Below, piece after piece: positions 12,013 to 32,000 of a stretch of DNA of 32,000 bases (positions within the stretch are counted from its first letter, which is position 1; every line of letters starts with the position of its first letter). The notes beneath the pieces are model-generated. The model worked only from the letters and a program-made list of their open reading frames with translations, made no database searches and was not told where the DNA came from. Location: positions 1,170,001 through 1,202,000 of the forward strand of contig OY969931.1 in assembly GCA_963704705.1 (NCBI GenBank), in the 5' to 3' direction. The position numbers and the translations under genes are program-made. Source of the DNA: an uncultured bacterium (lineage in GTDB: Bacteria; Patescibacteriota; Gracilibacteria; UBA1369; PNNO01).

Positions 12013-12408
12013 ATGTCCGAAACACCAAAATCAGAAGTTCCTGAAAAGGATTTTTCAACGGACAGGCTTGATGATACGCTGGCTGCGACTGATGCGATTA
12101 TATTAAGAATTAAAACAGCTTGTGATCTTGTTGTTAGAACTATGACAGCAATTGATGATACCAAAAAATTTCAAAATAGTTCCCTTCCAATAGTGAGGGA
12201 AGTTTATACATCGCAATTCAAAAAATTACTTGAACAATTAGAGGCAGATGAGATCAAAAAAGGAACAGTAAAAATAGAACTTATTAGAAAAATTGAAATT
12301 ATAAATGAAGCCATAAAATTGCATAAAGGTTCATTTTTCTTAAGAGACTTAAACAGGGCTTTAAGAATACTGAAAAAAGAGCTCGAAAGCCTTACAACGG
12401 ACTTTTAA
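12013..12408 (+). CDS. hypothetical protein (131 aa)
   Basis: ORF 10 nt downstream of ntpD. No motif recognised. Its 3' end overlaps the 3' end of the convergent recombinase gene by 17 nt. Confidence 0.45.
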   Translation: MSETPKSEVPEKDFSTDRLDDTLAATDAIILRIKTACDLVVRTMTAIDDTKKFQNSSLPIVREVYTSQFKKLLEQLEADEIKKGTVKIELIRKIEIINEAIKLHKGSFFLRDLNRALRILKKELESLTTDF

Positions 12409-13213
12409 TACTTTTTATAGCTTTTTGACGAACATGAGTATAAATTTGCGTTGTTCTTACACTAGCATGACCTAAAAGCTCCTGTACATACCTTAGGTTA
12501 GTTCCGCACTCAATCAAATGCGTTGCAAAACTATGCCGGAGCGAATGAAAAGTAGCCGGAATATCAACCTCAGCTTTTTTAAGTGCATTCTTAAAAACCT
12601 TCTGAACTGTTCGTGGATGTAACTTTCCTCCCCTATTACTCTCAAAAACATATTGGTACGGCTTTTTATCTTTCAAATAAAACTTGAGTCGATCCCAAAG
12701 CTTATCAGGTAAAATTGTAAAACGACTTTTGAATCCCTTGCCATTTTTGATATAAATCGTGTGATCATAAAAACGAACATCCCTGACCTTAAGGTCGATA
12801 AGCTCACTCAGCCTCAACCCCGCTCCATAAGCCAAAAGAATAATAAGTTTGTGCTTTTTATTGTTGGTGGAGTCTGCGATCAGAAGTACCATCGGCTTGG
12901 AAAGTGTTTTAGGCGTACTTTTTGGCCGCTTAGCATACGGAACCTTGATTTCTTTACGGCGTTTCATGACGTTAAAATAAAAAAATTTTATCGCACATAA
13001 ATACAAATTGCGCGAAACCGGCCCAACTCCCTCCTTAGCCTTCTCAAATAAAAATTGCTGCACCATTTGCTGGCTATAACGTCGTATTGCCTCCCCATCA
13101 AATTCCAAATACTTCTCGATGTTATACATGTACGTTTTGCGAGTCCTCGGACTATAATTGCGAATAACCAAGGCAAACTCCATCTCCTTTAGCATTTTAT
13201 TAATTTTTTTCAT
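12392..13213 (-). CDS. intI: Integron-integrase-like tyrosine recombinase (short form, 273 aa)
   Basis: Catalytic set present: R in AGLRLSE, K in GKGFKSR, HxxR in HSLRHSFAT, H in LLGHASV, Y in QIYTHV. N-terminus RNYSPRTRKTY and C-terminus IYTHVRQKAIKSIKSPL resemble IntI (IntI1 ends ...IYTHVLKVGGAGVRSPLD, from memory). It is divergent from the cassette array. Only 62 aa separate GKG from HSLRH, so the IntI-specific insertion seems to be missing. Confidence 0.8.
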   Translation of the reverse strand: MKKINKMLKEMEFALVIRNYSPRTRKTYMYNIEKYLEFDGEAIRRYSQQMVQQFLFEKAKEGVGPVSRNLYLCAIKFFYFNVMKRRKEIKVPYAKRPKSTPKTLSKPMVLLIADSTNNKKHKLIILLAYGAGLRLSELIDLKVRDVRFYDHTIYIKNGKGFKSRFTILPDKLWDRLKFYLKDKKPYQYVFESNRGGKLHPRTVQKVFKNALKKAEVDIPATFHSLRHSFATHLIECGTNLRYVQELLGHASVRTTQIYTHVRQKAIKSIKSPL

Positions 13214-13314
13214 AAAAATATGTTAAAAATATGCACGCAGCATATCCAAACATTATTAAATATTTCTAAAAAAAACCTAAAATATGCTAAAGTACGCTAA
13301 GTAGGGAGTTAGCG
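13214..13314 (+). other. attI-like region with recombination point G|TTAGCG at 13308|13309
   Basis: Identity with the copy of cassette 1 at 30993 begins exactly at GTTAGCG (13308-13314). Inverted boxes CGCTAA (13295-13300) and TTAGCG (13309-13314) are separated by 8 nt. Upstream direct repeats are AAAATATGTTAAA (13214) and AAAATATGCTAAA (13279), with a palindrome ATATGCacgcaGCATAT at 13229-13245. Confidence 0.7.
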
Positions 13315-13318
13315 GAAA

Positions 13319-13347
13319 TTGGGCTGATTTTAAAAGCGACTTAATAT
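13319..13347 (+). promoter_or_regulatory. cassette-borne promoter candidate (cassette 1; repeated in cassette 28)
   Basis: TTGGGC, 17-nt spacer, TAATAT. It lies inside the cassette, so it travels with it (same sequence at about 31004-31032). Confidence 0.35.
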
Positions 13348-13378
13348 ATAATTCAAATAATTCTTAACCTAAAATTCT

Positions 13379-13957
13379 ATGAATCAAACATGGAAAATCA
13401 TTGTCGCCGTCATTATTACAGCAGTCGTTGTCGGAGGTGGCTTTTACTTCTGGCAACAGAGCAAGGAAGAAACTCCACAAGTTACTCGAAAAACCGAAGA
13501 TCAAACACCAGCTCCAGCAGCTGAAACCGAAAAAACGTTCACTGGTAGCGGATTTACATTCACATACCCCGTAGAATATACAGCTGATAACAAAGGACTT
13601 TGGACAACGGACGGTTATCAAAGACATATAAATCCGCCTGAAGCTTGCGATACCTGCCAGATACCAGAAGTAGAAGTAAAAGCCACCACTTCAAATAAAA
13701 CATTGGATCAACAAATTATTGCTGATTATGACTTGCCAGGAACAACACTGGCAGAGATGTCTAAACAAACTGGCATCAAATATGAGCAAATAAAAATCGG
13801 CGACAATGATTTTATCAAAATCACGGTTAGCGACATGTTCGATGTAACAGGATATTACACAAAACATAATAATCAGATTGTCGCTTTTAAAGTTTATTTG
13901 ACGGAAAAAGATAATAAGGCATTAAAAGATATTATTTCGACTTTGAAGTTTAATTAA
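13379..13957 (+). CDS. cassette 1 (13309-14086): membrane-anchored hypothetical protein (192 aa)
   Basis: N-terminal TM helix IIVAVIITAVVVGGGFYFW followed by a Pro/Thr/Glu-rich linker. The protein is identical to the ORF at 31064-31642. Confidence 0.7.
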   Translation: MNQTWKIIVAVIITAVVVGGGFYFWQQSKEETPQVTRKTEDQTPAPAAETEKTFTGSGFTFTYPVEYTADNKGLWTTDGYQRHINPPEACDTCQIPEVEVKATTSNKTLDQQIIADYDLPGTTLAEMSKQTGIKYEQIKIGDNDFIKITVSDMFDVTGYYTKHNNQIVAFKVYLTEKDNKALKDIISTLKFN

Positions 13958-13972
13958 AATCAGCCCAACATC

Positions 13973-14092
13973 AGCTAACAAAGGCTATGCGGCTACGATC
14001 CTTTCAGTCGCTACGCCCATATTGTGCGGTGGTGAGCCACTTCGCGGCCAATTATACCACCGCACAACATCGCATAGCCTTGGCCGTTAGCC
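13973..14092 (+). repeat. attC 1
   Basis: R'' AGCTAAC, R' GTTAGCC. L arms aaggctatgcg/cgcatagcctt. Inner stem tgtgcggtgg/ccaccgcaca. ATTATACCACC core. Confidence 0.85.
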
Positions 14093-14164: not shown

Positions 14165-14456
14165 ATGAATACACCTGAAGGATTTCCAGTTGAATTATGT
14201 CCACCACACTATATAGATCATCAATTAGATAATACTCATAGAGACATTTGGATTACAGATGTTAGTGAACAAATATACAGAAGATGGATATTTTGTTGAA
14301 AACTTTCCACCTGAAATAAATGAAAGAGTATTTCAAGTTCGTGATGGTGTATCACGGGCAACACAATTTAAGGTACGTACACATCCTGAGAGAATTTATC
14401 GTGCAACTGATAATCCACATAAAACAGGATGGTGGGAATGTAATGTAGATAAATAA
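14165..14456 (+). pseudogene. cassette 2 (14087-14579): possibly frameshifted small gene
   Basis: The ATG at 14165 opens a 45-codon frame (MNTPEGFPVELCPPHY...) that stops at about 14300. A second frame, open from 14229, carries the 65-aa track ORF (14259-14456). The frames overlap and share one upstream promoter, which is consistent with a single gene broken by a 1-nt indel. Two small genes is the alternative. Confidence 0.35.
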
Positions 14457-14463
14457 AAACAGC

Positions 14464-14585
14464 GGCTAACAGGTGTATGTTCAGCTTCACTCGCTATGCT
14501 CGTTACGCCCATATTTTTGCAAGTGATGGCGCTTCGCGCTATTATACCACTTGCAAAAACATAGTACATACACCGGCCGTTGTAC
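14464..14585 (+). repeat. attC 2
   Basis: R'' GGCTAAC, R' GTTGTAC. L arms ggtgtatgt/acatacacc. Inner stem tttttgcaagtg/cacttgcaaaaa. ATTATACCAC core. Confidence 0.85.
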
Positions 14586-14656: not shown

Positions 14657-14980
14657 ATGTTATCCCCCATTCATAATCATAAAACTATGAATTTTGGTAG
14701 CTATCGAGCTCGCGTCGCTATAGTAAGAGATATTAGCGAGTTCAAAACAATCAAAGATAGTAATAGAGCAGACAAACTAAATCAAGCTTTAAACAAGGGA
14801 AAAAGCAAAGTTGAACAAGCAAAAACTGATGCAGATATTGAACAAGCATGTAAAGAAACTTTTGAAGAAGTATTAAGAGTTTTTGAAGGTAGTGATGAAC
14901 ATGATGGTATGCGGGGCTTTGTTTTAGTGGATAGATTTCAAAGCGACGCTCACAATTGGTGGAATAATTCAAAGAATTAA
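14657..14980 (+). CDS. cassette 3 (14580-15152): hypothetical protein (107 aa)
   Basis: Intact ORF. A paralog at 29288-29611 differs by one residue (S35R). The true start may be the internal ATG at 14687. Confidence 0.6.
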   Translation: MLSPIHNHKTMNFGSYRARVAIVRDISEFKTIKDSNRADKLNQALNKGKSKVEQAKTDADIEQACKETFEEVLRVFEGSDEHDGMRGFVLVDRFQSDAHNWWNNSKN

Positions 14981-15004: not shown

Positions 15005-15158
15005 GTACAACAGGCGCATTAACGGTTCGGGCTTTTTCTTGCGGCTGGCTTCGCACAGCCAAAAATCCCTCTCCCAACTTTTTTAACGGTGCTTTCATGC
15101 CTTGCGGCATGTTATTATACCACCGTCAAAAAGTTCGCTAATGCGCCAGACGTTGCAC
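15005..15158 (+). repeat. attC 3 (long type A)
   Basis: R'' GTACAAC, R' GTTGCAC. L arms ggcgcatta/taatgcgcc. Inner stem ttttttaacggtg/caccgtcaaaaa. ATTATACCACC core. Confidence 0.85.
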
Positions 15159-15437
15159 GCAATTGCACACACTCAAAAAAAACCGTAAGTCAATTTCTCG
15201 ACTTTCGCTTTTTTTGCGCCTGCGGCGGTTGTGTGTGCAACAACGTACAACAAACGTATATTCAACTCTCTTCTCTCTCATGTTTCATTTTCTTTTAATC
15301 AATTAAATAACTTAATAAATAAAAATAAATTTCACTACAAATAACCCGTTCGTCCAAATTAGGCTTCTCTCGCCGCGGTGATTGGGATATTATATCACCG
15401 CTTCTCGTTCAGCCTAACTTTGTATATACGTTGGACG
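15153..15437 (+). repeat. cassette 4: ORF-less 285-bp cassette, copy 1 of 3
   Basis: It starts at G|TTGCAC and ends at ...ttggacG|TT. There is an 82-bp body with an A8/T7-8-containing hairpin (ttgcacacac...gtgtgtgcaa). An attC-like part then carries an AT-rich insertion of about 110 nt. Near-identical to 15948-16231 and 17986-18269. Confidence 0.8.
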
Positions 15438-15443
15438 TTATAC
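15235..15443 (+). repeat. attC 4 (within ORF-less cassette)
   Basis: R'' GTGCAAC (15235-41) matches the cassette start TTGCAC. A tandem second box GTACAAC lies at 15244-50. R' GTTATAC. Arms acgtatat/atatacgt. Inner stems ttaggct/agcctaa and cgcggtgat/atcaccgc. Confidence 0.6.
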
Positions 15444-15522: not shown

Positions 15523-15936
15523 ATGAGAAGCAGAACACCTATTTGTGATAGGAACAAAAGAGAGCTTGCAATATGCAATGAAGCGCTTGATACAGGATCA
15601 TTTGGAGAATCTTTAATTAAATTAAAGCCATCGGAACTCGACTCGCTTCTAGATAACTTTCATCTTGCTATTACTTTATTTATGGATAGATTGGATTGTG
15701 AAAGGGCGATGAATTTAAAAACCGTAACGCTCGCGTCGGAACTGCATATAATGAATTATTGGAAGCTAAAAAAGGTAATTAACTCCTTTTTCTTGCAGCG
15801 CATAACAGGCGCATTAACGGTTCGGGCTTTTTTTGCGGCTGGCTTTCGCACACCCAAAAATCCCTCACCCAACTTTTTTAACGGTGGTTCCATGCCTTAC
15901 GGCATGATATTATACCACCGTCAAAAAGTTCGCTAA
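15523..15936 (+). CDS. cassette 5 (15438-15947): hypothetical protein; the ORF reads into its attC
   Basis: 137-aa ORF with no stop before the attC. The last 45 or so codons are translated attC sequence, and the stop TAA lies in the L' arm (gcTAAtgcgcc). Confidence 0.5.
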   Translation: MRSRTPICDRNKRELAICNEALDTGSFGESLIKLKPSELDSLLDNFHLAITLFMDRLDCERAMNLKTVTLASELHIMNYWKLKKVINSFFLQRITGALTVRAFFAAGFRTPKNPSPNFFNGGSMPYGMILYHRQKVR

Positions 15937-15953
15937 TGCGCCGGACGTTGCAC
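15800..15953 (+). repeat. attC 5 (type A)
   Basis: R'' GCATAAC, R' GTTGCAC. L arms ggcgcatta/taatgcgcc. ATTATACCACC core. Confidence 0.85.
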
Positions 15954-16231
15954 GCAATTGCACACACTCAAAAAAAACCGTAAGTCATTTCTCAACTTTC
16001 GCTTTTTTTTGCGCCTGCGGCGGTTGTGTGTGCAACAACGTACAACAAACGCATATTCAACTCTCTTCTCTTTCATGTTTCATTTTCTTTTAACCAATTA
16101 AATCACTTAATAAATAAAAATAAATTCACTACAAATAACCCGTTCGTCCAAATTAGGCTTCTCTCGCCGCGGTGATTGGGATATTATATCACCGCTTCTC
16201 GTTCAGCCTAACTTTGTATATGCGTTGGACG
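15948..16231 (+). repeat. cassette 6: ORF-less cassette, copy 2 of 3
   Basis: Same 284-bp unit as 15153-15437. Bounded by G|TTGCAC and ggacG|TT. Confidence 0.8.
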
Positions 16232-16237
16232 TTATGT
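16030..16237 (+). repeat. attC 6 (within ORF-less cassette)
   Basis: R'' GTGCAAC (16030-36), R' GTTATGT (16231-37). Same architecture as attC 4. Confidence 0.6.
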
Positions 16238-16342: not shown

Positions 16343-16609
16343 ATGAGAGATACAATAAGCGGTTCAAACGAACCTAAACCAGAAAAACCTCCTCTTCATT
16401 CATTGGAACAGTGGGAGTTGTCTAACAGAATTTCGCATGAAACGGGCTGTAATAGTGAACAATTGAAGTGGATCGAAGATCGAATGAATGAATTAAATGT
16501 GGGTGAAAGTTTTGAATGGACCTCAGAAACACAACAAGTGATCACAATTACAAAGGTAGAAGAAAAATTTTACAAGTTAGACTTTCCTCAAAATTACAAA
16601 CGATCGTAA
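16343..16609 (+). CDS. cassette 7 (16232-16794): hypothetical protein (88 aa)
   Basis: Intact ORF followed by a terminator-like hairpin. No motif recognised. Confidence 0.55.
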   Translation: MRDTISGSNEPKPEKPPLHSLEQWELSNRISHETGCNSEQLKWIEDRMNELNVGESFEWTSETQQVITITKVEEKFYKLDFPQNYKRS

Positions 16610-16670: not shown

Positions 16671-16800
16671 GCATAACACTGGACATGCGGTTCGGGTTAT
16701 CCCCGAAAGACCTTATGCAAATTGAAAAACCCCGCTCTTTTTGATAAAATTGATTAAGGAAGGGGGGTTTTTCAACTTCGCATGTCCAGGAACGTTATGT
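16671..16800 (+). repeat. attC 7 (divergent type)
   Basis: R'' GCATAAC, R' GTTATGT. L arms ctggacatgcg/cgcatgtccag. Inner stem gaaaaacccc/ggggtttttc. It lacks the ATTATACC core. Confidence 0.8.
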
Positions 16801-16912
16801 GAAATAGCCAGAAATTTCTTAATTATTTTTTAGATTTTTTTGGCAATTTATTTCAACGGTCGACATAACTTATGATATAATTTAGTCAGTTTAATATTTA
16901 ACCAAAATAACT

Positions 16913-17161
16913 ATGGAATCACCAGAACAAGGGTTTAACCCACAAGAACATACACGCTGGGCAAAACAGCGGGCACTTGAACTATTAGAAAACGGAGATC
17001 TTATGCAGGCAATTGACTCAATGGTAAGTGATTTAGGTAAAGATCCTACGCGCCCGCCTGAACAAGTGAGAATGCTTACTATGATGGGCATGATTACAAG
17101 AAATGATCCCGCATTAGATGAAAAGAAAGTACGCGAGTTTATTGAAGGGTTTGCTGAATAA
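16913..17161 (+). CDS. cassette 8 (16795-17399): hypothetical protein (82 aa)
   Basis: Intact ORF. No motif recognised. Confidence 0.55.
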   Translation: MESPEQGFNPQEHTRWAKQRALELLENGDLMQAIDSMVSDLGKDPTRPPEQVRMLTMMGMITRNDPALDEKKVREFIEGFAE

Positions 17162-17204
17162 ATTGCCAAAAAAAGAATAAGGAATAGAAATTTCTGGCTA
17201 CATC

Positions 17205-17405
17205 ACATAACAGCGTGTATCTGGCTACGGAAAATTGGCGTTAATTAAACCCTTAAGGAATGCTAATTTTCCTCCGCCCAAATCCCGCACTAATTTTTGT
17301 GGGTTTTGGATGGAGAGCGTGTATAAAAGTGTTCGTAATAATTTTTAACATTATCTTTTACCAACAAAATTAGTGCGGGACTTCAGATACACGCAAACGT
17401 TAGCC
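17205..17405 (+). repeat. attC 8 (201 bp, divergent type)
   Basis: R'' ACATAAC, R' GTTAGCC. L arms gcgtgtatctg/cagatacacgc. Inner stem cccgcactaatttt/aaaattagtgcggg. Confidence 0.8.
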
Positions 17406-17490
17406 GCCATTCAATATTAGTTATGTATTTGTTATTTATGGCTTTTTGTTGTATAATATATACGTATTATATAATTAACAACTTATATAT

Positions 17491-17835: not shown

Positions 17836-17843
17836 TAGAAAGC

Positions 17844-17991
17844 GGCTAACAGGCGCATATAAGGTTCACTTCGCTTCGCTCGCTCACCCAAAAAAGCTAC
17901 ACTCGTCTCGGTGGTGAGCACGCTTATAAGCGTGACATTTTACCACCTCGTCTCGTTTCGCATTTCTTCTTATATACGCCGGACGTTGCAC
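17844..17991 (+). repeat. attC 9
   Basis: R'' GGCTAAC, R' GTTGCAC. L arms ggcgcatataag/cttatatacgcc (1 mismatch). Apical palindrome cacgcttataagcgtg. Confidence 0.8.
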
Positions 17992-18269
17992 GCAATTGCA
18001 CACACTCAAAAAAAACCGTAAGTCATTTCTCGACTTTCGCTTTTTTTTGCGCCTGCGGCGGTTGTGTGTGCAACAACGTACAACAAACGCATATTCAACT
18101 CTCTTCTCTTTCATGTTTCATTTTCTTTTAACCAATTAAATCACTTAATAAATAAAAATAAATTCACTACAAATAACCCGTTCGTCTAAATTAGGCTTCT
18201 CTCGCCGCGGTGATTGGGATATTATATCACCGCTTCTCGTTCAGCCTAACTTTGTATATGCGTTGGACG
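17986..18269 (+). repeat. cassette 10: ORF-less cassette, copy 3 of 3
   Basis: Same 284-bp unit as 15948-16231. Bounded by G|TTGCAC and ggacG|TT. Confidence 0.8.
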
Positions 18270-18275
18270 TTGTAT
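18068..18275 (+). repeat. attC 10 (within ORF-less cassette)
   Basis: R'' GTGCAAC (18068-74), R' GTTGTAT (18269-75). Same architecture as attC 4. Confidence 0.6.
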
Positions 18276-18796: not shown

Positions 18797-18929
18797 ACAC
18801 AACAGCTGATTATGCGGTTCCACTCGCCTATCGGCTCGTTTCACCCAACTTTTCAAACGGTGGTTGCACGTCTGGCGACGTGATATTATACCACCGTCAA
18901 AAAGTTCGCATAGTCAGCGGACGTTAGGC
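18797..18929 (+). repeat. attC 11
   Basis: R'' ACACAAC, R' GTTAGGC. L arms gctgattatgcg/cgcatagtcagc (1 mismatch). Inner stem ttttcaaacggtgg/ccaccgtcaaaaa. ATTATACCACC core. Confidence 0.85.
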
Positions 18930-19229: not shown

Positions 19230-19375
19230 GCCTAACAGCAAACTATCCGGTTCAGCCTTTTTTGATGCGCGGCTTTGCACGCGCAAAAGGCTTCACCCAA
19301 CTTTTTTTGCAATGGTGGCGCTGACGCGCTATTATACCATCGCAAAAAAGTTCGTATAGTTTGCGGCCGTTGTGT
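19230..19375 (+). repeat. attC 12 (type B)
   Basis: R'' GCCTAAC, R' GTTGTGT. L arms gcaaactat/atagtttgc. Inner stem ctttttttgcaatgg/ccatcgcaaaaaag. ATTATACCATC core. Confidence 0.85.
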
Positions 19376-19873: not shown

Positions 19874-19997
19874 ACACAACAGCAAACTATCCGGTTCAGC
19901 TCCTTAAAGTCGCTTCACCCAACTTTTTTTGCAACGGTGGCGCTGACGCGCTATTATACCATCGCAAAAAAGTTCGTATAGTTTGCGGACGTTAGAC
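19874..19997 (+). repeat. attC 13 (type B)
   Basis: R'' ACACAAC, R' GTTAGAC. L arms gcaaactat/atagtttgc. ATTATACCATC core. Confidence 0.85.
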
Positions 19998-20774: not shown

Positions 20775-20912
20775 GCCTAACACGGCATGTGCGGTTCGGG
20801 CTTCTTTTCGGCTGGCTACGCACAGCCTCAAAGCCCTCACCCATATTTGCCACTGCTACCGCTGCGCGATATTATAGCAGTGGCAAACATCGCACATGCC
20901 GGAACGTTATGT
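20775..20912 (+). repeat. attC 14
   Basis: R'' GCCTAAC, R' GTTATGT. L arms cggcatgtgcg/cgcacatgccg. Inner stem tttgccactgct/agcagtggcaaa. ATTATAGCAG core variant. Confidence 0.85.
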
Positions 20913-21528: not shown

Positions 21529-21684
21529 ACATAACAGGCGCATTAACGGTTCGGGTTTTTTTTGTCGGGCGGCCTAAAGCACGCCCAAAAATCCCTCACC
21601 CAACTTTTTTAACGGTGGTGACATGCCTTGCGGCATGTTATTATGCCACCGTCAAAAAGTTCGCTAATGCGCCGGACGTTAGGC
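21529..21684 (+). repeat. attC 15 (type A)
   Basis: R'' ACATAAC, R' GTTAGGC. L arms ggcgcatta/taatgcgcc. ATTATGCCACC core. Confidence 0.85.
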
Positions 21685-21996: not shown

Positions 21997-22114
21997 GCCT
22001 AACAGCAAACTATCCGGTTCCGCTCCTTGCAGTCGCTACACCCAACTTTGCCAGTGGTGGCGCTTCGCGCTATTATACCACTGTCAAAGTTCGTATAGTT
22101 TGCGGACGTTGTGC
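21997..22114 (+). repeat. attC 16 (type B)
   Basis: R'' GCCTAAC, R' GTTGTGC. L arms gcaaactat/atagtttgc. ATTATACCACT core. Confidence 0.85.
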
Positions 22115-22572: not shown

Positions 22573-22696
22573 GCACAACAGCAAACTATCCGGTTCAGCT
22601 CCCTTCGCTCGCTTCACCCAACTTTTTTTGCAATGGTCGCGCTATCGCGCTATTATACCATCGCAAAAAAGTTCGTATAGTTTGCAGACGTTAGGC
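22573..22696 (+). repeat. attC 17 (type B)
   Basis: R'' GCACAAC, R' GTTAGGC. L arms gcaaactat/atagtttgc. ATTATACCATC core. Confidence 0.85.
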
Positions 22697-22734: not shown

Positions 22735-23229
22735 ATGACAATTTTTTTCGACATCCATCAAAACAAAGTTGAATTACCCCCGAATGAAAAAATTTTTTGG
22801 CGTATTTCTTCATACACAATCGTAGAACACAAAGGTAAAATTTTGGTTCTCAAACCACAATATGACACAAGTAAGTGGATTCTTCCTGGAGGTGGCATCG
22901 AAACAAATGAATCCATTGCTCAAGGGATAGAGAGAGAGTGCTATGAAGAAACTGGCTACAAAATCAAAGTCGATGCCACTCATCCTATTCACGTAGGAGA
23001 ATCAAACCTTTACCTAGAAAATGAGAAAAAATTTTTTCATTCTCTCAACTTCATATATGAAGCAAAACTATTAAGTGAAGACCAAAATAAAAAAATGATC
23101 AATTCAATAGAAACCGAAGAAGTAGAAAAAGTAGATTGGATTCCATTAGAAGAAATAAATGAAAAAAATTGTCACCACATCATGTATCCAGCAATTGAAA
23201 ATTATAAAAAGTGTCGCCACATCGCCTAA
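22735..23229 (+). CDS. cassette 18 (22691-23337): Nudix hydrolase
   Basis: 164 aa. Nudix box GGGIETNESIAQGIERECYEETGY fits GX5EX7REUXEEXGU. The stop TAA lies inside R'' (GCCTAAC). Confidence 0.9.
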   Translation: MTIFFDIHQNKVELPPNEKIFWRISSYTIVEHKGKILVLKPQYDTSKWILPGGGIETNESIAQGIERECYEETGYKIKVDATHPIHVGESNLYLENEKKFFHSLNFIYEAKLLSEDQNKKMINSIETEEVEKVDWIPLEEINEKNCHHIMYPAIENYKKCRHIA

Positions 23230-23343
23230 CACAGAATATGCGGTTTCGCTCCCGTTGGTCGCTACACCCATATTTGCTGGTGGTGGCTCACTTCGTTCGC
23301 TATTATACCACCAGCAAACATCGCATATTCTGGAACGTTGTGT
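23224..23343 (+). repeat. attC 18
   Basis: R'' GCCTAAC, R' GTTGTGT. L arms cagaatatgcg/cgcatattctg. Inner stem tttgctggtgg/ccaccagcaaa. ATTATACCACC core. Confidence 0.85.
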
Positions 23344-23841: not shown

Positions 23842-23965
23842 ACACAACAGCAAACTATCCGGTTCAGCTCCTTAAAGTCGCTTCACCCAACTTTTTTTGC
23901 AATGGTGGCGCTGACGCGCTATTATACCATCGCAAAAAAGTTCGTATAGTTTGCGGACGTTGTAC
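23842..23965 (+). repeat. attC 19 (type B)
   Basis: R'' ACACAAC, R' GTTGTAC. Otherwise as attC 13. Confidence 0.85.
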
Positions 23966-24405: not shown

Positions 24406-24557
24406 GTACAACAGGCGCATTAACGGTTCGGCTTTTTTTGCGGCTGGCTTCGCACAGCCAAAAATCCCTCACCCAACTTTTTTAACGGTGGTGGCATGTC
24501 TGGCGACATGATATTATACCACCGTCAAAAAGTTCGTTAATGCGCCGGACGTTAGGC
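24406..24557 (+). repeat. attC 20 (type A)
   Basis: R'' GTACAAC, R' GTTAGGC. L arms ggcgcatta/ttaatgcgcc. ATTATACCACC core. Confidence 0.85.
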
Positions 24558-24560: not shown

Positions 24561-24660
24561 ATATTTTTGAAAAATTTGATTTTAAAATGTTTTTGGTGAG
24601 CTTTAAGAAATAAGGAATTTGATTTTTTTAATTTTTAAAGAGGGGGGGGGGTAAAAGGTG
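24561..24660. repeat. IR-L of the RM module (G-rich copy, contains G10 at 24642-24651)
   Basis: tatttttgaaaaattt...gtttttggtgagcttt...gaatttgattttttt...aaagaggggggggggt is an imperfect inverted copy of 27098-27204. The core motif AATTTGATTTTT...AGAGGGG is shared with 27787-27825 and 28571-28625. Confidence 0.7.
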
Positions 24661-24754: not shown

Positions 24755-27082
24755 ATGGCAAACGAAAGAAAAACCGAAATAATCACAAGAGACCATTTTT
24801 CCAAATTTTTGGATTCTATTTATATTGAAGAACAACGCTCAGATAATCCAAAAATTGATAAGTTGTTAAAATCTGCCTCAAAAAAAGGCGGTGGAAAAGG
24901 TTATCCAGAATTTATCATCAGCTACAAAACTAATCCTGATTTACTGATTGTTATTGAATGTAAAGCAGATGTAACAAAACACGAAAGCAAAGATCACGAT
25001 AAATATTCAGAGTTTGCTGTTGATGGTGCTTTACTTTATGCCTCTTATTTATCAAAGGGCTTTGATGTTTTAGCAATTGCAGTTAGCGGAGAAACAAAGC
25101 AGTCTCTAAAAATTTCTCATTTTTTACATTTGAGAGACGAGAAAAAAGCAACTCCAATTTTTAGCGATAAATTTTTGTCAGTTGACGATTATTTAAACGG
25201 ATATTTGAAAAGCCCTGAAAAATTTAGACAAGATTATAATTCGCTTTTAGATTTCACAAAACAACTTAATGAAAAATTGCATGGTTATAAAATTCTTGAG
25301 AGCCAAAGGAGTTTGCTTATTAGTTCAATTTTAATTGCCTTAGAAAATGTTGCTTTCAAAAGATCATATGCTTCGCACAAAAAAGCTGAAAATCTTGCAG
25401 TTTCTCTAATTCAAACAGTTTCCGATGAATTGGAAAGTGCAAACATCACAGGGAAGAAACTTGAAAACTTGAATACTCAATTCAGCTTTATTAAAACGGA
25501 TACATCTTTATCAAAAAAAGAAAATGTTTTGAAAGAAATTATTGATGAAATTGACGAAAATATAAATGCTTTTATCAAAACTCACAGATATTTTGACGTA
25601 TTGGGACAGCTTTATATTGAATTTTTGAGATACGCAAATAGTGACAAGGGGCTAGGAATTGTTTTAACGCCCCCGCACATCACAGAGCTTTTTGCGGACT
25701 TAGCACAAGTCAATAAAAACTCTATCGCTTATGACAATTGTACGGGAACAGGCGGGTTTTTGATTAGTGCAATGAAAAAAATGATAGCAGACGCAAAAGG
25801 CGATGAATCAAAAATCAAAGAAATAAAATCAAAACAGCTTATCGGAACGGAATATCAATCGCATATTTTTGCTTTGGCGGTTTCAAACATGTACATTCAC
25901 CAAGACGGAAAAACAAATATCATAAATGGCAGTTGTTTTGATGAGGAAATTATTGAAGATGTAAAAACTAAAAAACCAACAGTTGGTTTTTTGAATCCTC
26001 CCTACAAAGACAAAAAGGGAGATACTGAAGAGTTAGAATTCGTGCTTAATAATTTAGAATGTTTAGTTGATGGTGGCGTATGCGTGGCTATAATTCCACT
26101 AAGTTCAGTCATTGCACAAAATGGCATTAAGCTTCAGCTAAAAGAAAAACTACTACAAAATCATACATTAGAAGCCGTCTTGTCAATGCCAGAAGATCTT
26201 TTCCATAATTCAAAAGTTTCGCCTGTTTCTGTCGTTGTTGTCTTTACCGCCCATAAACCACATCCTGTGGGTAAAAAAACATGGTTAGGCTATTTTAGAA
26301 ATGATAATTTTGTAAAAACCAAAGACAAAGGACGTATAGACTTATTGGGAACATGGGAAGAAATAAAAAAAGAATGGCTTACATTATATTTTAATAGAGA
26401 AACAAAAAAAGACATAAGTTTGACGAGAGAATTAAAACCACAAGATGAGTGGTGCATAGAGGCATATTTAACATATGATTATAGTAAAATTACTGAGTAT
26501 AAACTTAAAGATAAAATACAAAAATATTTAGCATTTCGCTTACTTCACGATTTACTTGATTTTAAAATTGATAAACCAAATAAACTTAAAAATGATAACA
26601 AAGTAGTTCCATTGCATGAGATTTTTGATGTAAAAAATGGATTAGCATCTTCAAATGTAGAGGTATTAGAATCTCCTGAAAGTCCTTCTGATATTAGATA
26701 TATTAGACCATCTCAAACTTACGAAGGAAGTATTGCTGGATACGTAGATAAGACATTTATAGACGATAAATACATTTATCCTGACAATACGCTATATGTT
26801 TCTACAGATGGGCAAGGAAGTCATACCTATTCGTATGTTTCATCTTTTGAATTTATCCCAAACAGCAATGTTTCTGTGTTAATGCCTAAAAGAGAAATGT
26901 CCGTACAAGAAAAAATATATTATGCACTTTGCATTTCAAGCAATAGATACAAGTTTTCTTATGGCAGAAAGCCTAAAGGCGATAGATTAAAAGATATATT
27001 TTTACCTTTGTATCCGCCTGAATATGTTCACGGTGATATTTTTAATGAAATCTTTGATAATTGGAAAAAAATAGTAAAATAA
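24755..27082 (+). CDS. cassette 21 (24552-27341): single-chain restriction-modification enzyme (Type IIG-like): N-terminal PD-(D/E)xK-like domain, gamma-class N6-adenine methyltransferase, C-terminal TRD
   Basis: 775 aa. SAM motif I YDNCTGTGGFL and motif IV FLNPPY. The N-terminal NPDLLIVIECKAD resembles the HSDR_N/PD-ExK nuclease motif. The C-terminal 170 or so aa (VPLHEIFDVKNGL...RLKDIFLPL) resemble a single HsdS-type target-recognition domain. The methyltransferase call is strong; the nuclease call is tentative. Confidence 0.75.
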   Translation: MANERKTEIITRDHFSKFLDSIYIEEQRSDNPKIDKLLKSASKKGGGKGYPEFIISYKTNPDLLIVIECKADVTKHESKDHDKYSEFAVDGALLYASYLSKGFDVLAIAVSGETKQSLKISHFLHLRDEKKATPIFSDKFLSVDDYLNGYLKSPEKFRQDYNSLLDFTKQLNEKLHGYKILESQRSLLISSILIALENVAFKRSYASHKKAENLAVSLIQTVSDELESANITGKKLENLNTQFSFIKTDTSLSKKENVLKEIIDEIDENINAFIKTHRYFDVLGQLYIEFLRYANSDKGLGIVLTPPHITELFADLAQVNKNSIAYDNCTGTGGFLISAMKKMIADAKGDESKIKEIKSKQLIGTEYQSHIFALAVSNMYIHQDGKTNIINGSCFDEEIIEDVKTKKPTVGFLNPPYKDKKGDTEELEFVLNNLECLVDGGVCVAIIPLSSVIAQNGIKLQLKEKLLQNHTLEAVLSMPEDLFHNSKVSPVSVVVVFTAHKPHPVGKKTWLGYFRNDNFVKTKDKGRIDLLGTWEEIKKEWLTLYFNRETKKDISLTRELKPQDEWCIEAYLTYDYSKITEYKLKDKIQKYLAFRLLHDLLDFKIDKPNKLKNDNKVVPLHEIFDVKNGLASSNVEVLESPESPSDIRYIRPSQTYEGSIAGYVDKTFIDDKYIYPDNTLYVSTDGQGSHTYSYVSSFEFIPNSNVSVLMPKREMSVQEKIYYALCISSNRYKFSYGRKPKGDRLKDIFLPLYPPEYVHGDIFNEIFDNWKKIVK

Positions 27083-27249: not shown

Positions 27250-27347
27250 GCCTAACACAGTATATGCGGTTCGCTCGTTGCACTTCGCTCTCCCATATTT
27301 TGCTCCGTTTCACTCCGCAAAACATCGCATATACTGAAACGTTGTAG
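27250..27347 (+). repeat. attC 21 (short, 98 bp)
   Basis: R'' GCCTAAC, R' GTTGTAG. L arms cagtatatgcg/cgcatatactg. Short apical stem ttttgc/gcaaaa. It lacks the ATTATACC core. Confidence 0.8.
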
Positions 27348-27585: not shown

Positions 27586-27737
27586 GTACAACAGGCGCAT
27601 TAACGGTTCGGGCTTTTTCTCGCCTGGCTTCGCACAGCCAAAAATCCCTCACCCAAGTTTTTTAACGGTGGTGGCACGTCTGGCGACGTGATATTATACC
27701 ACCGTCAAAAACTTCGCTAATGCGCCGAACGTTATAT
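27586..27737 (+). repeat. attC 22 (type A)
   Basis: R'' GTACAAC, R' GTTATAT. L arms ggcgcatta/taatgcgcc. ATTATACCACC core. Confidence 0.85.
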
Positions 27738-27744: not shown

Positions 27745-27825
27745 ATTTTCCTTCTAAACTGAAAATTGGCTTATTCATAAAGAAAAGAATTTGATTTTTC
27801 TTTTTTTTGATAGAGGGGGGAAATT
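27745..27825. repeat. IR of the HTH module (G-rich copy, at the gene's 3' end)
   Basis: cattttcc...gaatttgatttttcttttttttgatagaggggggaaatt is an imperfect inverted copy of 28571-28666. Confidence 0.6.
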
Positions 27826-28474
27826 ATTGCTCTTCAATCAAACTTTTTAGCTCATCTAATCGATCAACTTCATTAGCCTGAGAGGCAGCATATTCAAGGC
27901 AAGCTACAAATTTGTCCTTACTCATTGGTCCTTTACCACGAATAAAGTTCGAAAGTTGTCCAGCATTAACATTGCATGCAGCTGCTAGTTTTCTAAGGCC
28001 TTGTACAACTCCCATCTTAATAGCTATATGAAGTGCTTTTGCTATAAATTCACGAAATTTATCTTCGCTAGAAAATTCACTATTTTCAATTAATTTAAGA
28101 AAATTAAGCATTCCAGAATATTCTTCTCTTAAAATAATATTCTCAATTTTCGCTGGAATACGTTCATTCAAGTTACGCACAAGCACATCTACATAATTTG
28201 CTAAATTATCCTTGTCCGGATCATTATCAGCAATTTCATGCTGTGCACTGAGAATGTTTCTCACGCCTAAAGCAACTTGCTCAAGCAGAGGTAATAATTG
28301 TGGAAATAGTTTAATAACTTGAGGATTTAAAACCACAACTTCATCGCTTCTTCTTTCAAAAAATTGACTCAAATTTAGATCCCCAATCGTTTGCAATGTT
28401 GGAGCTTCTTTTACTATTCCCTCAGGAGTTTCAGGAAACAAATCTCTTGTATCTAACCCTTTTCCTTTCGCCAT
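27824..28474 (-). CDS. cassette 23 (27732-28787): HTH-domain protein (216 aa), reverse orientation
   Basis: C-terminal XRE/Cro-like helix-turn-helix LRKLAAACNVNAGQLSNFIRGKGPMSKDKF. The N-terminal 150 or so aa are unrecognised. It has its own consensus promoter. Confidence 0.6.
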   Translation of the reverse strand: MAKGKGLDTRDLFPETPEGIVKEAPTLQTIGDLNLSQFFERRSDEVVVLNPQVIKLFPQLLPLLEQVALGVRNILSAQHEIADNDPDKDNLANYVDVLVRNLNERIPAKIENIILREEYSGMLNFLKLIENSEFSSEDKFREFIAKALHIAIKMGVVQGLRKLAAACNVNAGQLSNFIRGKGPMSKDKFVACLEYAASQANEVDRLDELKSLIEEQ

Positions 28475-28671: not shown

Positions 28672-28793
28672 ATATAACAGGTGTATGTTCGGCTACACTC
28701 GCTTAGCTCGTTTCGCCCATATTTTTGCAAGTGGTTCCGCTTCGCGTTATTATACCACTTGCAAAAACATCGTACATACACCGGACGTTAGGC
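28672..28793 (+). repeat. attC 23
   Basis: R'' ATATAAC, R' GTTAGGC. L arms ggtgtatgttcg/cgtacatacacc (1 mismatch). Same subfamily as attC 2. Confidence 0.85.
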
Positions 28794-29210
28794 GCATCTC
28801 TTAATCAATCTATGACGACAACTATATACAAAAATATTGTAAGCATAATTTATTGGACATAGTTCTCACCTTACTTTCAATATCATAAAAATAATGTTAT
28901 GAATTACATGTACTTGAATACAGTAGTTATGAAACACGACCTTCCTGGGGATTCCCTTTGCAGATGTATATGATAATGATGTTAGCTCACCAGTAATGTC
29001 AACGAATGAAAAGATATATTCATTTTTTACAAATGATTGGGGATATATTAATTTATAAATTTTGGCTTCTCAAACCATTTTTAATATTTAAAAAAAGAGA
29101 CACCGCCTAACAGTAAACTATCCGGATTCTCTCCTTCGGCTACACCCAACTTTGCCAGTGGTGGCGCATCGGCTATTAAACAAATGTAAAATCCGTATAG
29201 TTTGCGGACG
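28788..29210 (+). pseudogene. cassette 24: decayed paralog of cassette 16 (membrane protein)
   Basis: Alignable by eye with 21679-22108 along its length, but the start codon is lost (tctATGAcgacaac vs tctattATGaaatta) and there are multiple indels. No ORF of 60 aa or more. Confidence 0.7.
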
Positions 29211-29216
29211 TTGTAC
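29105..29216 (+). repeat. attC 24 (degenerate)
   Basis: R'' GCCTAAC, R' GTTGTAC, and the left arm is intact. The right half of the inner stem (expected attataccactgtcaaagttcg) is replaced by attaaacaaatgtaaaatccg, so the hairpin is disrupted. Confidence 0.6.
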
Positions 29217-29634: not shown

Positions 29635-29788
29635 GTACAACAGGCGCATTAACGGTTCGGGCTTTTTCTTGCGGCTGGCTTCGCACAGCCAAAAATCCCT
29701 CTCCCAACTTTTTTAACGGTGCTTTCATGCCTTGCGGCATGTTATTATACCACCGTCAAAAAGTTCGCTAATGCGCCAGACGTTAGGC
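29635..29788 (+). repeat. attC 25 (type A)
   Basis: R'' GTACAAC, R' GTTAGGC. Body identical by eye to attC 3. Confidence 0.85.
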
Positions 29789-30078: not shown

Positions 30079-30082
30079 CATC

Positions 30083-30225
30083 GCATAACAGCGAACTATC
30101 CGGTTCGGGCTTTTTTGATGCGCGGCTTTGCGGGGCAAAAGCCTTCACCCAACTTTTTTTAATGGTGGCGCTGACGCGCTATTATACCACCGTAAAAAAG
30201 TTCGTATAGTTTGCGCCCGTTATGT
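30083..30225 (+). repeat. attC 26 (type B)
   Basis: R'' GCATAAC, R' GTTATGT. L arms gcgaactat/atagtttgc (1 mismatch). ATTATACCACC core. Confidence 0.8.
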
Positions 30226-30258
30226 GACATCCATTTTTTCTCATTGTAGAATAACGAC

Positions 30259-30828
30259 ATGGAAAAAGAACCAATTACACCGATTGAAATAGTAAAAGCA
30301 GATATTAAACTTTTTGAAAAATATCAAAAAGAAATTTTGGAAATCGAAAGAGAACTTATCGAAAATAGTTCATCAGCATATCTTATTGATGAACAAGATG
30401 AGCTCGATTTTATGTTAGATGCGTTTAAAAAAGGAGGTTATGCTTATTTAGTAATGGAAAATGAAAAAGTTACTGGGTTTTTAGTTGTTGGGCCACTCGA
30501 TGATGGGACTGAATTGCCTGAAACAGTTACTCAAAATTATCCAATTGCAAATTGCCTTCATATCAAAGTAATGTACATAAAAAATACAAGCAAAGGAATT
30601 GGTAGTGAAATGATGGAAAAATTAATTCAAGAACTAGATAAAGAACAATGGAAATATTTATTTGTAAGAACTTGGATTGATCCACCAAATGAAGGAGCTA
30701 TTAATTTTTATACAAATCGAGCTGGCTTTGAAGCTGTTCCAAATGCAATAGTTGAATCAACAAAAAGAAAATTGGATGGAAGTGGAACACTCCAAATAAA
30801 AAGACAATATTTTTCAAAAAGGATATAG
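30259..30828 (+). CDS. cassette 27 (30220-30993): GNAT-family N-acetyltransferase (intact copy)
   Basis: 189 aa. The acetyl-CoA pocket pattern is SKGIGSEMMEKLI followed by NEGAINFYTNRAGFE. Confidence 0.8.
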   Translation: MEKEPITPIEIVKADIKLFEKYQKEILEIERELIENSSSAYLIDEQDELDFMLDAFKKGGYAYLVMENEKVTGFLVVGPLDDGTELPETVTQNYPIANCLHIKVMYIKNTSKGIGSEMMEKLIQELDKEQWKYLFVRTWIDPPNEGAINFYTNRAGFEAVPNAIVESTKRKLDGSGTLQIKRQYFSKRI

Positions 30829-30842
30829 AAAAAATGGACATC

Positions 30843-30999
30843 ACATAACAGGCGCATTAACGGTTCGGGTTTTTTTTGTCGGGCGGCCTAAAAGCACGCC
30901 CAAAAATCCCTCACCCAACTTTTTTAACGGTGGTGACATGCCTTGCGGCATGTTATTATGCCACCGTCAAAAAGTTCGCTAATGCGCCGGACGTTAGCG
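30843..30999 (+). repeat. attC 27 (type A)
   Basis: R'' ACATAAC, R' GTTAGCG. L arms ggcgcatta/taatgcgcc. Confidence 0.85.
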
Positions 31000-31063
31000 G
31001 AAATTGGGCTGATTTTAAAAGCGACTTAATATATAATTCAAATAATTCTTAACCTAAAATTCT

Positions 31064-31642
31064 ATGAATCAAACATGGAAAATCATTGTCGCCGTCATTA
31101 TTACAGCAGTCGTTGTCGGAGGTGGCTTTTACTTCTGGCAACAGAGCAAGGAAGAAACTCCACAAGTTACTCGAAAAACCGAAGATCAAACACCAGCTCC
31201 AGCAGCTGAAACCGAAAAAACGTTCACTGGTAGCGGATTTACATTCACATACCCCGTAGAATATACAGCTGATAACAAAGGACTTTGGACAACGGACGGT
31301 TATCAAAGACATATAAATCCGCCTGAAGCTTGCGATACCTGCCAGATACCAGAAGTAGAAGTAAAAGCCACCACTTCAAATAAAACATTGGATCAACAAA
31401 TTATTGCTGATTATGACTTGCCAGGAACAACACTGGCAGAGATGTCTAAACAAACTGGCATCAAATATGAGCAAATAAAAATCGGCGACAATGATTTTAT
31501 CAAAATCACGGTTAGCGACATGTTCGATGTAACAGGATATTACACAAAACATAATAATCAGATTGTCGCTTTTAAAGTTTATTTGACGGAAAAAGATAAT
31601 AAGGCATTAAAAGATATTATTTCGACATTGAAGTTTAATTAA
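31064..31642 (+). CDS. cassette 28 (30994-31769): membrane-anchored hypothetical protein, duplicate of cassette 1
   Basis: 192-aa protein identical to 13379-13957. At the DNA level there is one synonymous change plus changes in the attC. Confidence 0.7.
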   Translation: MNQTWKIIVAVIITAVVVGGGFYFWQQSKEETPQVTRKTEDQTPAPAAETEKTFTGSGFTFTYPVEYTADNKGLWTTDGYQRHINPPEACDTCQIPEVEVKATTSNKTLDQQIIADYDLPGTTLAEMSKQTGIKYEQIKIGDNDFIKITVSDMFDVTGYYTKHNNQIVAFKVYLTEKDNKALKDIISTLKFN

Positions 31643-31657
31643 AATCAGCCCAACATC

Positions 31658-31775
31658 AGATAACAAAGGCTATGCGGCTACGATCCTTTCAGTCGCTACG
31701 CCCATATTGTGCGGTGGTGGCCCTTCGCGGCCAATTATACCACCGCACAACATCGCATAGCCTTGGCCGTTAAAT
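31658..31775 (+). repeat. attC 28
   Basis: R'' AGATAAC, R' GTTAAAT. Otherwise as attC 1, with a 2-nt indel in the apical loop. Confidence 0.8.
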
Positions 31776-31907
31776 GAAATTGATTATATTTATGTCGTAT
31801 GATAAATTTTGCTCCTTTAACAAATAAAGCATGAATAAAGTTTTGCATTTAAACATTGAAACATCTGAACCAGGTAAATGGTTAGATATATTACATGTCT
31901 AAGATTA

Positions 31908-32000
31908 ATGCATCTCGATGGCGTTGATACTATGGCCGATGATGGCAATACAAAAGCAGTTTTAGCAGTTTGTTTAGAAAAAGGAGCTGAAGTAAAAAGT
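31908..32000 (+). CDS. cassette 29 (31770->32000): partial ORF running off the window
   Basis: The ATG at 31908 opens a frame that stays open to the window edge (MHLDGVDTMADDGNTKAVLAVCLEKGAEVKS...). A 23-codon ORF precedes it in another frame. Confidence 0.25.
   Translation, partial: MHLDGVDTMADDGNTKAVLAVCLEKGAEVKS

Follow-up and report, generated by a model that had tools for sequence, protein, structure and literature searches.

Sedentary chromosomal integrons such as the Vibrio cholerae superintegron, with its Vibrio cholerae repeat (VCR)-type attC sites, combine a divergently oriented recombinase gene, an adjacent attI and a crossover at G|TT. In VchIntIA, the I2 helix/ALER insertion holds the extrahelical bases of attC. 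IntI1 experiments and the VchIntIA structure tie this additional domain to attC recognition, and the domain is used to define IntI and to search for it. Both PMC9668308, which cites Messier and Roy 2001, and PMC8138268 treat it as defining and as a reported requirement for integron recombination. Here we describe a locus that has the same divergent recombinase gene, adjacent attI and G|TT crossover, and whose recombinase has no such domain. It lies in a 32,000-nt stretch (hereafter the window; positions 1,170,001 to 1,202,000 of contig OY969931.1, assembly GCA_963704705.1) of an uncultured bacterium of the Patescibacteriota (Gracilibacteria; UBA1369; PNNO01), which belong to the candidate phyla radiation (CPR). 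We consider it likely that the locus is a sedentary chromosomal integron-type cassette platform. "Integron-like" is the correct wording for it, because the recombinase is not a canonical IntI and the hairpin geometry of its sites differs from that of canonical attC.

The cassette array extends from position 13308 to the end of the window and consists of imperfect palindromes between short units (Table 1); it runs beyond the window, the next unit beginning with G|TTAAAT at 31769. We scanned independently for AAC...GTT pairs that have a complementary 12-nt stem on their flanks (hand-made scanner, 10-of-12 threshold) and found 28 outer sites between 13973 and 31775, each 98-201 bp long, and a single weak match off the array on the same strand (12017-12139). 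The 28 palindromes counted in the first-pass annotation were therefore recovered, whereas the upper end of their size range, given there as 209 bp, is 201 bp by the present boundaries. The boxes of the 28 sites read RYRYAAC on the left and GTTRYRY on the right. The bare RYYYAAC motif is mildly enriched in the window (86 against 66 +/- 8 expected), and so the signal resides in the paired architecture and not in the motif by itself. The 28 units are 284-2790 bp long, in line with the 0.28-2.8 kb and the mostly single ORFs (open reading frames) described earlier: 22 of them carry an ORF of at least 58 aa or a reverse ORF, 20 having a plus-strand ORF that stops just 5' of the unit's own site and two (C14 and C23) a reverse one. 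In the remaining six, no ORF reaches 58 aa; they are the ORF-less copies C4, C6 and C10, together with C17, C24 and C26.

The observation that carries the argument is the relationship between the two ends of each unit. We compared the R'' box of each of the 28 units with the reverse complement of the first seven bases that open the same unit. The match is 7/7 in 17 units, 6/7 in ten and 5/7 in one; cassette 1 is a 6/7 case, its opening GTTAGCG predicting CGCTAAC where AGCTAAC is observed. Three ORF-less copies have a second box, GTGCAAC, 10 nt upstream, and when it is used instead the distribution becomes 20, 7 and 1, which is the count previously given for this complementarity. The earlier statement that R'' does not match the neighbouring box was also borne out, as none of the 28 R'' boxes is perfectly complementary to the adjacent R' box and the summed score is 129, against 179 for the unit's own start. 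Among 100,000 random re-pairings (mean 134.8, standard deviation 5.7, maximum 166), none reaches the observed 179. The same rule is found in other arrays, where the own start is perfect in 27 of 45 cases against 4 of 45 for the adjacent box, and it is also valid in distant arrays such as those of loci L004, L025 and L043.

Comparison within the array revealed seven families of duplicated cassettes in non-collinear order (C1 with C28, C3 with C25, C12 with C26, C15 with C27, C13 with C19, C16 with C24, and C4 with C6 and C10). The ends of the duplicates fall within a few bases of the G in G|TT, and in some cases the similarity extends to the left, into the 3' arm of the attC before, owing to the resemblance between attC families. 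C13 and C19 share the attC that follows them, and the attCs that precede them differ; an attC thus moves together with its upstream ORF, as it does in integron cassettes. Together with the breaks in homology between genomes described below, the pairing test and the duplicates support the proposal of the first-pass annotation that each unit was once a circle closed at G|TT. The sites could be viewed instead as immobile intergenic palindromes, i.e., repetitive extragenic palindrome (REP)/bacterial interspersed mosaic element (BIME)-like elements or terminators that spread between genes, the units never having been circles. That they lie between ORFs, are palindromic, fall into few sequence families and match no Rfam family in a scan of the window (Rfam contains no attC family) would suit this view. 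It is nevertheless barely credible, since the partner of R'' is the distant end of its own unit and not the neighbouring box, the duplicates are bounded at G|TT, the homology between genomes breaks exactly at attI, and the sites are distributed on one side of the recombinase gene and polarised relative to it; terminator-like sites, moreover, are not enriched in the window (15 against 14.9 expected).

The proposed platform comprises the divergent 273-aa recombinase, the attI and then at least 28 cassettes, each made up of a TTRYRY start, usually one ORF, its own attC hairpin and a final G. Excision would occur by recombination between two attCs, releasing the cassette as a circle, and insertion by recombination of attC with attI, the crossover in each case being within G|TT. 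On this proposal, R'' complements the first bases of its own unit and not the neighbouring box because cassettes leave as circles with a G|TT crossover.

Comparison with related genomes indicates which parts of the locus are constant. Recombinase homologues number in the thousands and are about 270 aa long, those with a taxon label being nearly all from Patescibacteria, and the locus is close to metagenome-assembled genomes (MAGs) labelled Candidatus Peribacteria or Peregrinibacteria. In four sets of related contigs (L001, L007/8, L009 and L010/11), the V-type ATPase operon, the recombinase gene and the intergenic region with attI are syntenic at 69-86% nucleotide identity; the recombinases are 64-79% identical and the chromosomal position is constant, in agreement with the earlier description of the array as sedentary and chromosomal. 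Among the five syntenic contigs with flank past attI, the homology stops at 13310-13311, the G|TT of attI, in four (L001, L002, L009 and L011); it continues 28 nt past it in L010. Beyond attI, only attC-sized segments align between the window and related contigs; apart from a homologue of cassette 1 in L007 and L008, the cassette ORFs are not common to the related loci. The metagenome contigs L010 and L011 have an identical recombinase protein and an identical attI, and their first cassettes differ (TTAGGT... and TTATAT...). Arrays of the same architecture, also divergent from the recombinase, are found in L002, L009 and L010 (9, 11 and 9 sites), with different cargo that includes acetyltransferases, methyltransferases and a diversity-generating retroelement. 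The variation at the level of single cassettes that the first-pass annotation had proposed to look for is thus present: the locus is fixed and its cassette content is fluid. As regards individual contigs, L010 carries the diversity-generating retroelement module (bAvd and reverse transcriptase, 7564-8842) between attC sites, and L007 has a nucleotidyltransferase/HepT-like pair of toxin-antitoxin type and small genes (3758-4379) between the recombinase gene and the V-ATPase operon; the L007 genes indicate that the recombinase-proximal core side is also somewhat plastic.

The attI crossover and the recombinase start codon are 95 bp apart, with the crossover on the upstream side, and the sequence is conserved up to GGGAG|TT. 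C28, the copy of cassette 1, opens with the same GTTAGCG after attC27 as cassette 1 does after attI. We considered whether attI could be a symmetric dif site (CGCTAA-N8-TTAGCG) and rejected this, as the right arm differs in other genomes; the symmetry is incidental because the right arm belongs to cassette 1. The four phased CTAA(A/G) repeats that flank the core are candidate accessory binding sites for the recombinase. The palindrome ATATGC-N5-GCATAT, which is conserved with some substitutions in L001, L002, L007, L009 and L010, may be an operator or promoter element of the recombinase gene, comparable to the LexA box of classical integrons. No strong plus-strand promoter was listed for 13214-13308 among the sites shown by a consensus scan, whose consensus may not be that of CPR bacteria. 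An exact scan of metagenome contigs with the attI pattern gave no matches; L010, in which a match was expected, was probably outside the collection.

The divergent tyrosine recombinase gene reported at the head of the array is indeed present. Its product contains the Pfam Phage_integrase domain (1e-40) and a SAM-like N domain, and its catalytic set is complete (R134, K159, H223, R226, H249 and Y258). No curated NCBIfam cut-off is reached: the best model, XerA_Arch, scores 200.9 bits against a cut-off of 220, the integron integrase model TIGR02249 scores 185.5 against 265 with its match split in two stretches, and XerC and XerD score 174.9 against 335 and 163.6 against 330. In the alignment with IntI1, about 42 residues are missing from the recombinase, namely those of the IntI-specific additional domain around patch III, with its ALER motif and I2 helix; VchIntIA residues 214-241, approximately, likewise have no counterpart. 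The C-terminal (K/R)SPL tail is common to the recombinase, IntI1 and VchIntIA. An AlphaFold2 (AF2) model (mean predicted local distance difference test, pLDDT, 84) matches XerA and IntI4 structures equally (E ~1e-14 to 1e-15) and has no helix, just short strands, at the position of the additional domain. Judged from its sequence, the recombinase is an IntI/Xer-like core without the IntI-specific domain and not a canonical IntI.

The association of this type of recombinase with arrays was assessed in 80 metagenome loci (L016-L095), obtained by a protein-guided collection of homologues with 35-65% identity. With a strict threshold (11 of 12), 23 sites fell upstream of and divergent from the recombinase gene, against 1, 1 and 0 in the other three compartments; a geometry-free scan gave a six-fold higher site density upstream and a bulge polarity of 22 against 3. 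With these control counts, and the one weak off-array match in the window at 10 of 12, we regarded the scanner as sufficiently specific. In a rough neighbour-joining tree with IntI1 as the sole outgroup, arrays are concentrated in one broad recombinase clade, where 20 of the 24 loci with at least 3 kb of upstream sequence have a site and 13 have two or more, as opposed to one of 13 such loci outside the clade. Counting loci with at least two sites, the divergent adjacency is found in the window and in at least 13 others, at 37-79% recombinase identity and with site polarity fixed. Since the sites are one-sided, polarised and concentrated in one clade, coincidental adjacency is unlikely, and the pattern points to a recombinase clade that is dedicated, or at least co-adapted, to the arrays. 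An excess of contig ends near the recombinase, as repeat-induced assembly breaks would produce, was also considered and found weak: ends fall within 300 nt upstream in 22 of the 80 loci and downstream in 8, and within 1 kb in 36 and 23 (p = 0.12).

These data bear on the possibility that the sites form a cluster of attC sites lacking integron integrases (CALIN), built or maintained by a canonical IntI that is located elsewhere or has been lost, the adjacent recombinase being there by coincidence. By the IntegronFinder definition taken to the letter, the locus has no integron integrase, as the additional domain is absent, and 32 kb of the genome is in view. We regard this origin as very unlikely, however, given the recurrence of the divergent adjacency just described, a conserved attI that adjoins the recombinase promoter region and at whose G|TT the homology breaks, and a site geometry that departs from canonical attC in step with the missing domain.

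A second question is whether the recombinase is a dedicated integrase at all. It could be the cell's only Xer-type dimer resolvase, with attI being or overlapping a dif-like site, and the cassettes would then exploit Xer as folded single strands; the array would be a by-product of a housekeeping enzyme and not the work of a dedicated integrase. There are precedents for the individual elements. XerS/difSL and XerH/difH are single-recombinase modules in which the dif site lies beside the gene, and the CTX phage is integrated by XerCD at dif as a single-strand hairpin. The recombinase has Xer architecture, its best hidden Markov model is XerA_Arch and its fold matches XerA as well as IntI; its gene lies among core genes and is vertically inherited, and some family members have no array. 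In PMC8138268 the "Cand" recombinases of candidate phyla are described as related to Xer, and it is suggested that simple recombinases specific to individual classes could stand in for Xer. The cumulative GC skew of the window (1-32000) climbs to about 12 kb, at the recombinase and attI, and then flattens or drops. This peak near 12000 could mark the replication terminus; it could equally result from gene orientation and foreign cassette DNA, which confound the signal. Against a dual role, the array-bearing members form one clade, and the more basal array-less members look like plain Xer enzymes. The attI, with its phased accessory repeats and variable right arm, resembles an integron attI, unlike a symmetric dif. 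In L013, a distant family member, the recombinase gene and an adjacent attC-like site (16741-18105) lie about 8 kb from dnaA, which is not the place expected for a dif at the terminus. We therefore consider a dual role unlikely, and it would alter who benefits from the array and not the cassette mechanism.

The attC sites themselves have a uniform anatomy. On the top strand all of them read RYRYAAC-A-[L'']...[L']-NNN-C-GTTRYRY. Pairing in their 12-nt L stem reaches 93%, against 50% when partners are shuffled, and nearly all of its positions show three to four kinds of pair; through these compensatory changes it is the structure that is conserved and not the sequence. Next to the R box comes a position that is a G.T pair on the bottom strand in 28 of 28 sites and an A/C mismatch on the top strand. 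All 28 also have a 3-nt bulge on the R'-L' arm (TCC, GCC, TCT, TTC, TTT or GGC), and none has extrahelical bases or single-base bulges on the '' arm. Folding with DNA parameters, which the first-pass annotation had recommended, favoured the bottom strand in 27 of the 28 sites (summed energies of -901 against -787 kcal/mol), and in 13 other arrays the bottom strand was more stable in 40 of 42 sites. As a control we folded the aadA1 attC, whose sequence was confirmed at 100% identity in plasmid R100. It has the same 8-bp R stem with a G.T pair as the CPR sites; beyond the R stem its two arms are equal in net length, internal loops are present, and an extrahelical G projects from the opposite arm. 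The comparison indicates that the CPR sites retain the R box and the crossover and replace the spacer/extrahelical-base geometry. Canonical attC has two or three extrahelical bases, typically G and T, and an unpaired central spacer. The assignment of these extrahelical bases to the '' arm, reportedly made by MacDonald and colleagues in 2006, agrees with the control fold.

Under the proposed mechanism, the recombining form of attC would most likely be the folded bottom strand, and single-stranded bottom-strand substrates would be used. In the predicted fold of this form, the G.T pair closes an R stem of 8 bp, the R'-L' arm bears the pyrimidine-rich 3-nt bulge, and the covarying L stem, 9-12 bp long, leads to a terminal structure that is variable; the bulge may have taken over the marking of strand and polarity from the extrahelical bases. 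The asymmetry of the bulge could also suggest that the top strand is recombined and that each attC belongs to the ORF downstream of it. We rejected this idea, as the duplicates keep their own downstream attC; it is also contradicted by the better folding of the bottom strand and by the different upstream attCs of C13 and C19.

Two short sequence elements recur within the sites. The window contains 21 copies of the top-strand motif ATTATAnCA, whose bottom-strand reading, TGnTATAAT, matches the extended -10 consensus perfectly; all of them are inside an attC (21 of 28; for example at 14051, 15114, 19331, 23921 and 31734). The motif keeps a fixed distance to the G of R', 35-38 nt or, in the long class, 48 nt, irrespective of the flanking stem sequence, is unpaired at the base of the apical sub-hairpin in the predicted fold, and is present in the close lineage (L002, L009, L010 and L029) and absent from distant arrays. 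Possible roles are those of an antisense promoter, a site for a host factor or a nucleation element for the hairpin. Seven attCs also carry on the top strand TTGCAA or TTGCCA and TATTAT with a 17-nt spacer, a sigma-70-like arrangement directed into the next cassette, from which distal cassettes could be transcribed independently. Promoter-like hexamers are also present in many attCs and at many cassette 5' ends; top-strand sigma-70-like promoters are seen in about seven to nine attCs, and promoter-like matches in the window are modestly enriched (91 against 66 +/- 9), so that we did not use them as evidence.

Several points weigh against reading the locus as an integron-type platform. The local recombinase is the putative catalyst, proposed as such from its adjacency to and co-phylogeny with the arrays, and a domain-less recombinase as catalyst contradicts current expectation, because the domain is reported to be necessary (PMC9668308; PMC8138268). 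The window is 32 kb of a 1.37-Mb contig, and a canonical IntI or a second Xer may be present elsewhere in the genome. Some members of the array-bearing clade (L017, L028) have 10 kb of upstream sequence and no sites. The detector is hand-made, and single 10/12 matches may be due to chance, the background being about 10 per 270-370 kb. The bottom-strand preference derives from predicted DNA energies and one invariant wobble pair, and the 28 sites are not independent because they represent only about ten sequence families.

The window also contains the core genes that the array had been described as abutting, namely a DinG-like helicase gene and the V-type ATPase operon, which are listed with the other features in Table 1. 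The 131-aa ORF between the operon and the recombinase gene is convergent with the latter and overlaps its 3' end by 17 nt; related loci have other small ORFs at this position.

Table 1. Features of the window. Cassette rows derive from the stem-scan site calls and own-start pairing, and duplicates from comparison within the array; for cassettes the strand is that of the attC site, which bears the number of its cassette.
Feature	Coordinates	Strand	attC	ORF	Remarks
DinG-like helicase	14-2086				left end of window
V-type ATPase operon	3262-12002				nine genes
131-aa ORF	12013-12408				no family match; 3' of V-ATPase D subunit gene
Tyrosine recombinase	12392..13213	-		273 aa	divergent from array
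Palindrome ATATGC-N5-GCATAT	13229..13245				16-32 nt upstream of recombinase start codon
attI flank, four phased CTAA(A/G) repeats	13265..13301	+			10-11 bp apart; conserved across related loci to crossover
attI core CGCTAAG-TAGGGA-G|TTAGCG	13295..13314	+			crossover G13308|T13309; inter-genome homology ends there
C1	13309-14086	+	13973..14092	13379-13957, 192 aa	weak PsbP-like match; ~98.6% identical to C28
C2	14087-14579	+	14464..14585	14259-14456, 65 aa	no annotation
C3	14580-15152	+	15005..15158	14657-14980, 107 aa	no annotation; similar to C25
C4	15153-15437	+	15245..15443	none	ORF-less; long-class attC; similar to C6, C10
C5	15438-15947	+	15800..15953	15523-15936, 137 aa	no annotation
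C6	15948-16231	+	16040..16237	none	ORF-less copy of C4
C7	16232-16794	+	16671..16800	16343-16609, 88 aa	no annotation
C8	16795-17399	+	17205..17405	16913-17161, 82 aa	no annotation; attC 201 bp
C9	17400-17985	+	17844..17991	17491-17835, 114 aa	no annotation
C10	17986-18269	+	18078..18275	none	ORF-less copy of C4
C11	18270-18923	+	18797..18929	18310-18777, 155 aa	SLH domain
C12	18924-19369	+	19230..19375	19016-19225, 69 aa	similar to C26 (91%)
C13	19370-19991	+	19874..19997	19410-19850, 146 aa	HIT family; similar to C19
C14	19992-20906	+	20775..20912	20016-20693 (reverse), 225 aa	isochorismatase family
C15	20907-21678	+	21529..21684	20946-21437, 163 aa	shortened copy of C27 GNAT gene
C16	21679-22108	+	21997..22114	21707-21928, 73 aa	similar to C24 (88%)
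C17	22109-22690	+	22573..22696	none >=58 aa	
C18	22691-23337	+	23224..23343	22735-23229, 164 aa	NUDIX
C19	23338-23959	+	23842..23965	23378-23818	second HIT copy
C20	23960-24551	+	24406..24557	24028-24369, 113 aa	no annotation
C21	24552-27341	+	27250..27347	24755-27082, 775 aa; also an 83-aa ORF	type IIG restriction-methyltransferase; attC 98 bp
C22	27342-27731	+	27586..27737	58 aa	
C23	27732-28787	+	28672..28793	27824-28474 (reverse), 216 aa	no annotation
C24	28788-29210	+	29105..29216	none >=58 aa	88%-identical copy of C16
C25	29211-29782	+	29635..29788		copy of C3
C26	29783-30219	+	30083..30225	none >=58 aa	91%-identical copy of C12
C27	30220-30993	+	30843..30999	30259-30828, 189 aa	GNAT acetyltransferase
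C28	30994-31769	+	31658..31775		copy of C1
TTGCAA/TTGCCA-17-TATTAT	14517-14545, 19307-19335, 19929-19957, 20847-20875, 22048-22076, 22628-22656, 23897-23925	+			

The recognisable cargo consists of two HIT proteins, an isochorismatase (reversed), two GNAT proteins, a NUDIX protein, an SLH-domain protein and a type IIG restriction-methyltransferase, and the remainder is unannotatable. The last of these, a single-chain enzyme (PADLOC 4.5e-162), occupies the largest cassette (C21, 2.8 kb) and represents a defence system carried as a cassette in a CPR genome. Ahead of its gene, in the 5' untranslated part of C21, is a run of ten G (24642-24651), which may be prone to slippage and would then be a candidate for phase variation. 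The ORF-less C4, C6 and C10 are 96-99% identical, 284-285 bp long and almost wholly made up of a 198-199-bp attC in which the left box is doubled (GTGCAAC-AAC-GTACAAC) and an AT-rich insert is present. The GNAT cassettes C15 and C27 are 99.4% identical, yet their ORFs encode 163 and 189 aa, and one copy is probably frameshifted or truncated.

If the local recombinase is the catalyst, the minimal requirements for structure-specific recombination of single strands would need revising, as the IntI domain would be no prerequisite for folded-strand cassette recombination. CPR bacteria, with their tiny genomes and episymbiotic life, would then own a dedicated gene-capture device that takes up at least 18 kb, or more than 1% of the genome, and carries among other things a restriction-modification system and small metabolite-handling enzymes, and integron censuses keyed on the IntI domain would undercount, miss or mislabel such integrons. 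The origin of integrons from Xer-type recombinases would become testable with a living intermediate: the lineage may preserve a stage between Xer/dif and integron, possibly with an enzyme that still does both jobs, and a dual role, if true, would raise the interest of the finding. The compact 273-aa enzyme and the simple bulged hairpin might, in addition, be of use as a tool for recombination. A full-text literature search, beyond whose reach were most subscription journals, found no report of CPR integrons or of a domain-less integron integrase, and our data suggest a common integron variant that is apparently unreported. Whether it amounts to a distinct class of integron, widespread in the CPR, with a minimal Xer-like ("Cand"-type) recombinase that never had or has lost the IntI domain and with attC marked by a 3-nt bulge, is in our judgement evenly balanced.

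Among described systems, archaeal integrons (Ghaly et al. 2022, PMC9668308) likewise lie outside the classical hosts and are found in MAGs with cassette arrays and attC hairpins, but the archaeal IntIs keep the additional domain that is missing here. The "Cand" subgroup (Smyshlyaev et al. 2021, PMC8138268) and archaeal XerA share the short Xer-like architecture and, for the former, CPR hosts, with XerA being the best match of our recombinase; they are presumed dimer resolvases at dif, and the available sections of PMC8138268 mention no link to cassette arrays or attC. Our recombinase, a possible member of "Cand", differs in having a (K/R)SPL tail shared with IntI1 and VchIntIA. A CALIN is where the locus would be filed if an attC model fired, since a domain-keyed search would find no adjacent intI, but in this case a recombinase and a conserved attI stand at the head of the array and co-vary phylogenetically with arrays.

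Integrative mobile elements exploiting Xer (IMEX), such as the CTX phage at dif1, resemble the proposed system in the folded single-strand hairpin, the Xer-type enzyme, the exchange of one strand with a double-stranded chromosomal site and the tandem arrays; the units described here, however, are single-gene cassettes with integron-style R and L boxes and not phages. The overall likeness is to the sedentary chromosomal integrons of the V. cholerae type. The locus differs from these in the integrase without the IntI-specific domain, in the net 3-nt bulge on the R'-L' arm in place of an internal loop and extrahelical bases on the '' arm, and in its host, a CPR bacterium whose genome is about 1.4 Mb in size. 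It shares with them the long array of mostly promoterless single-ORF cassettes, each with a terminal attC, the homogeneity of the attCs within a lineage, and the presence of duplicated, ORF-less and a few reversed cassettes. The R boxes (RYYYAAC/GTTRRRY) and the AACA...CGTT context that gives the bottom-strand G.T pair are as in the aadA1 attC, the cargo is typical (GNAT, NUDIX, HIT, isochorismatase and a restriction-modification system), and, as in sedentary integrons, the position is fixed while the content varies between relatives.

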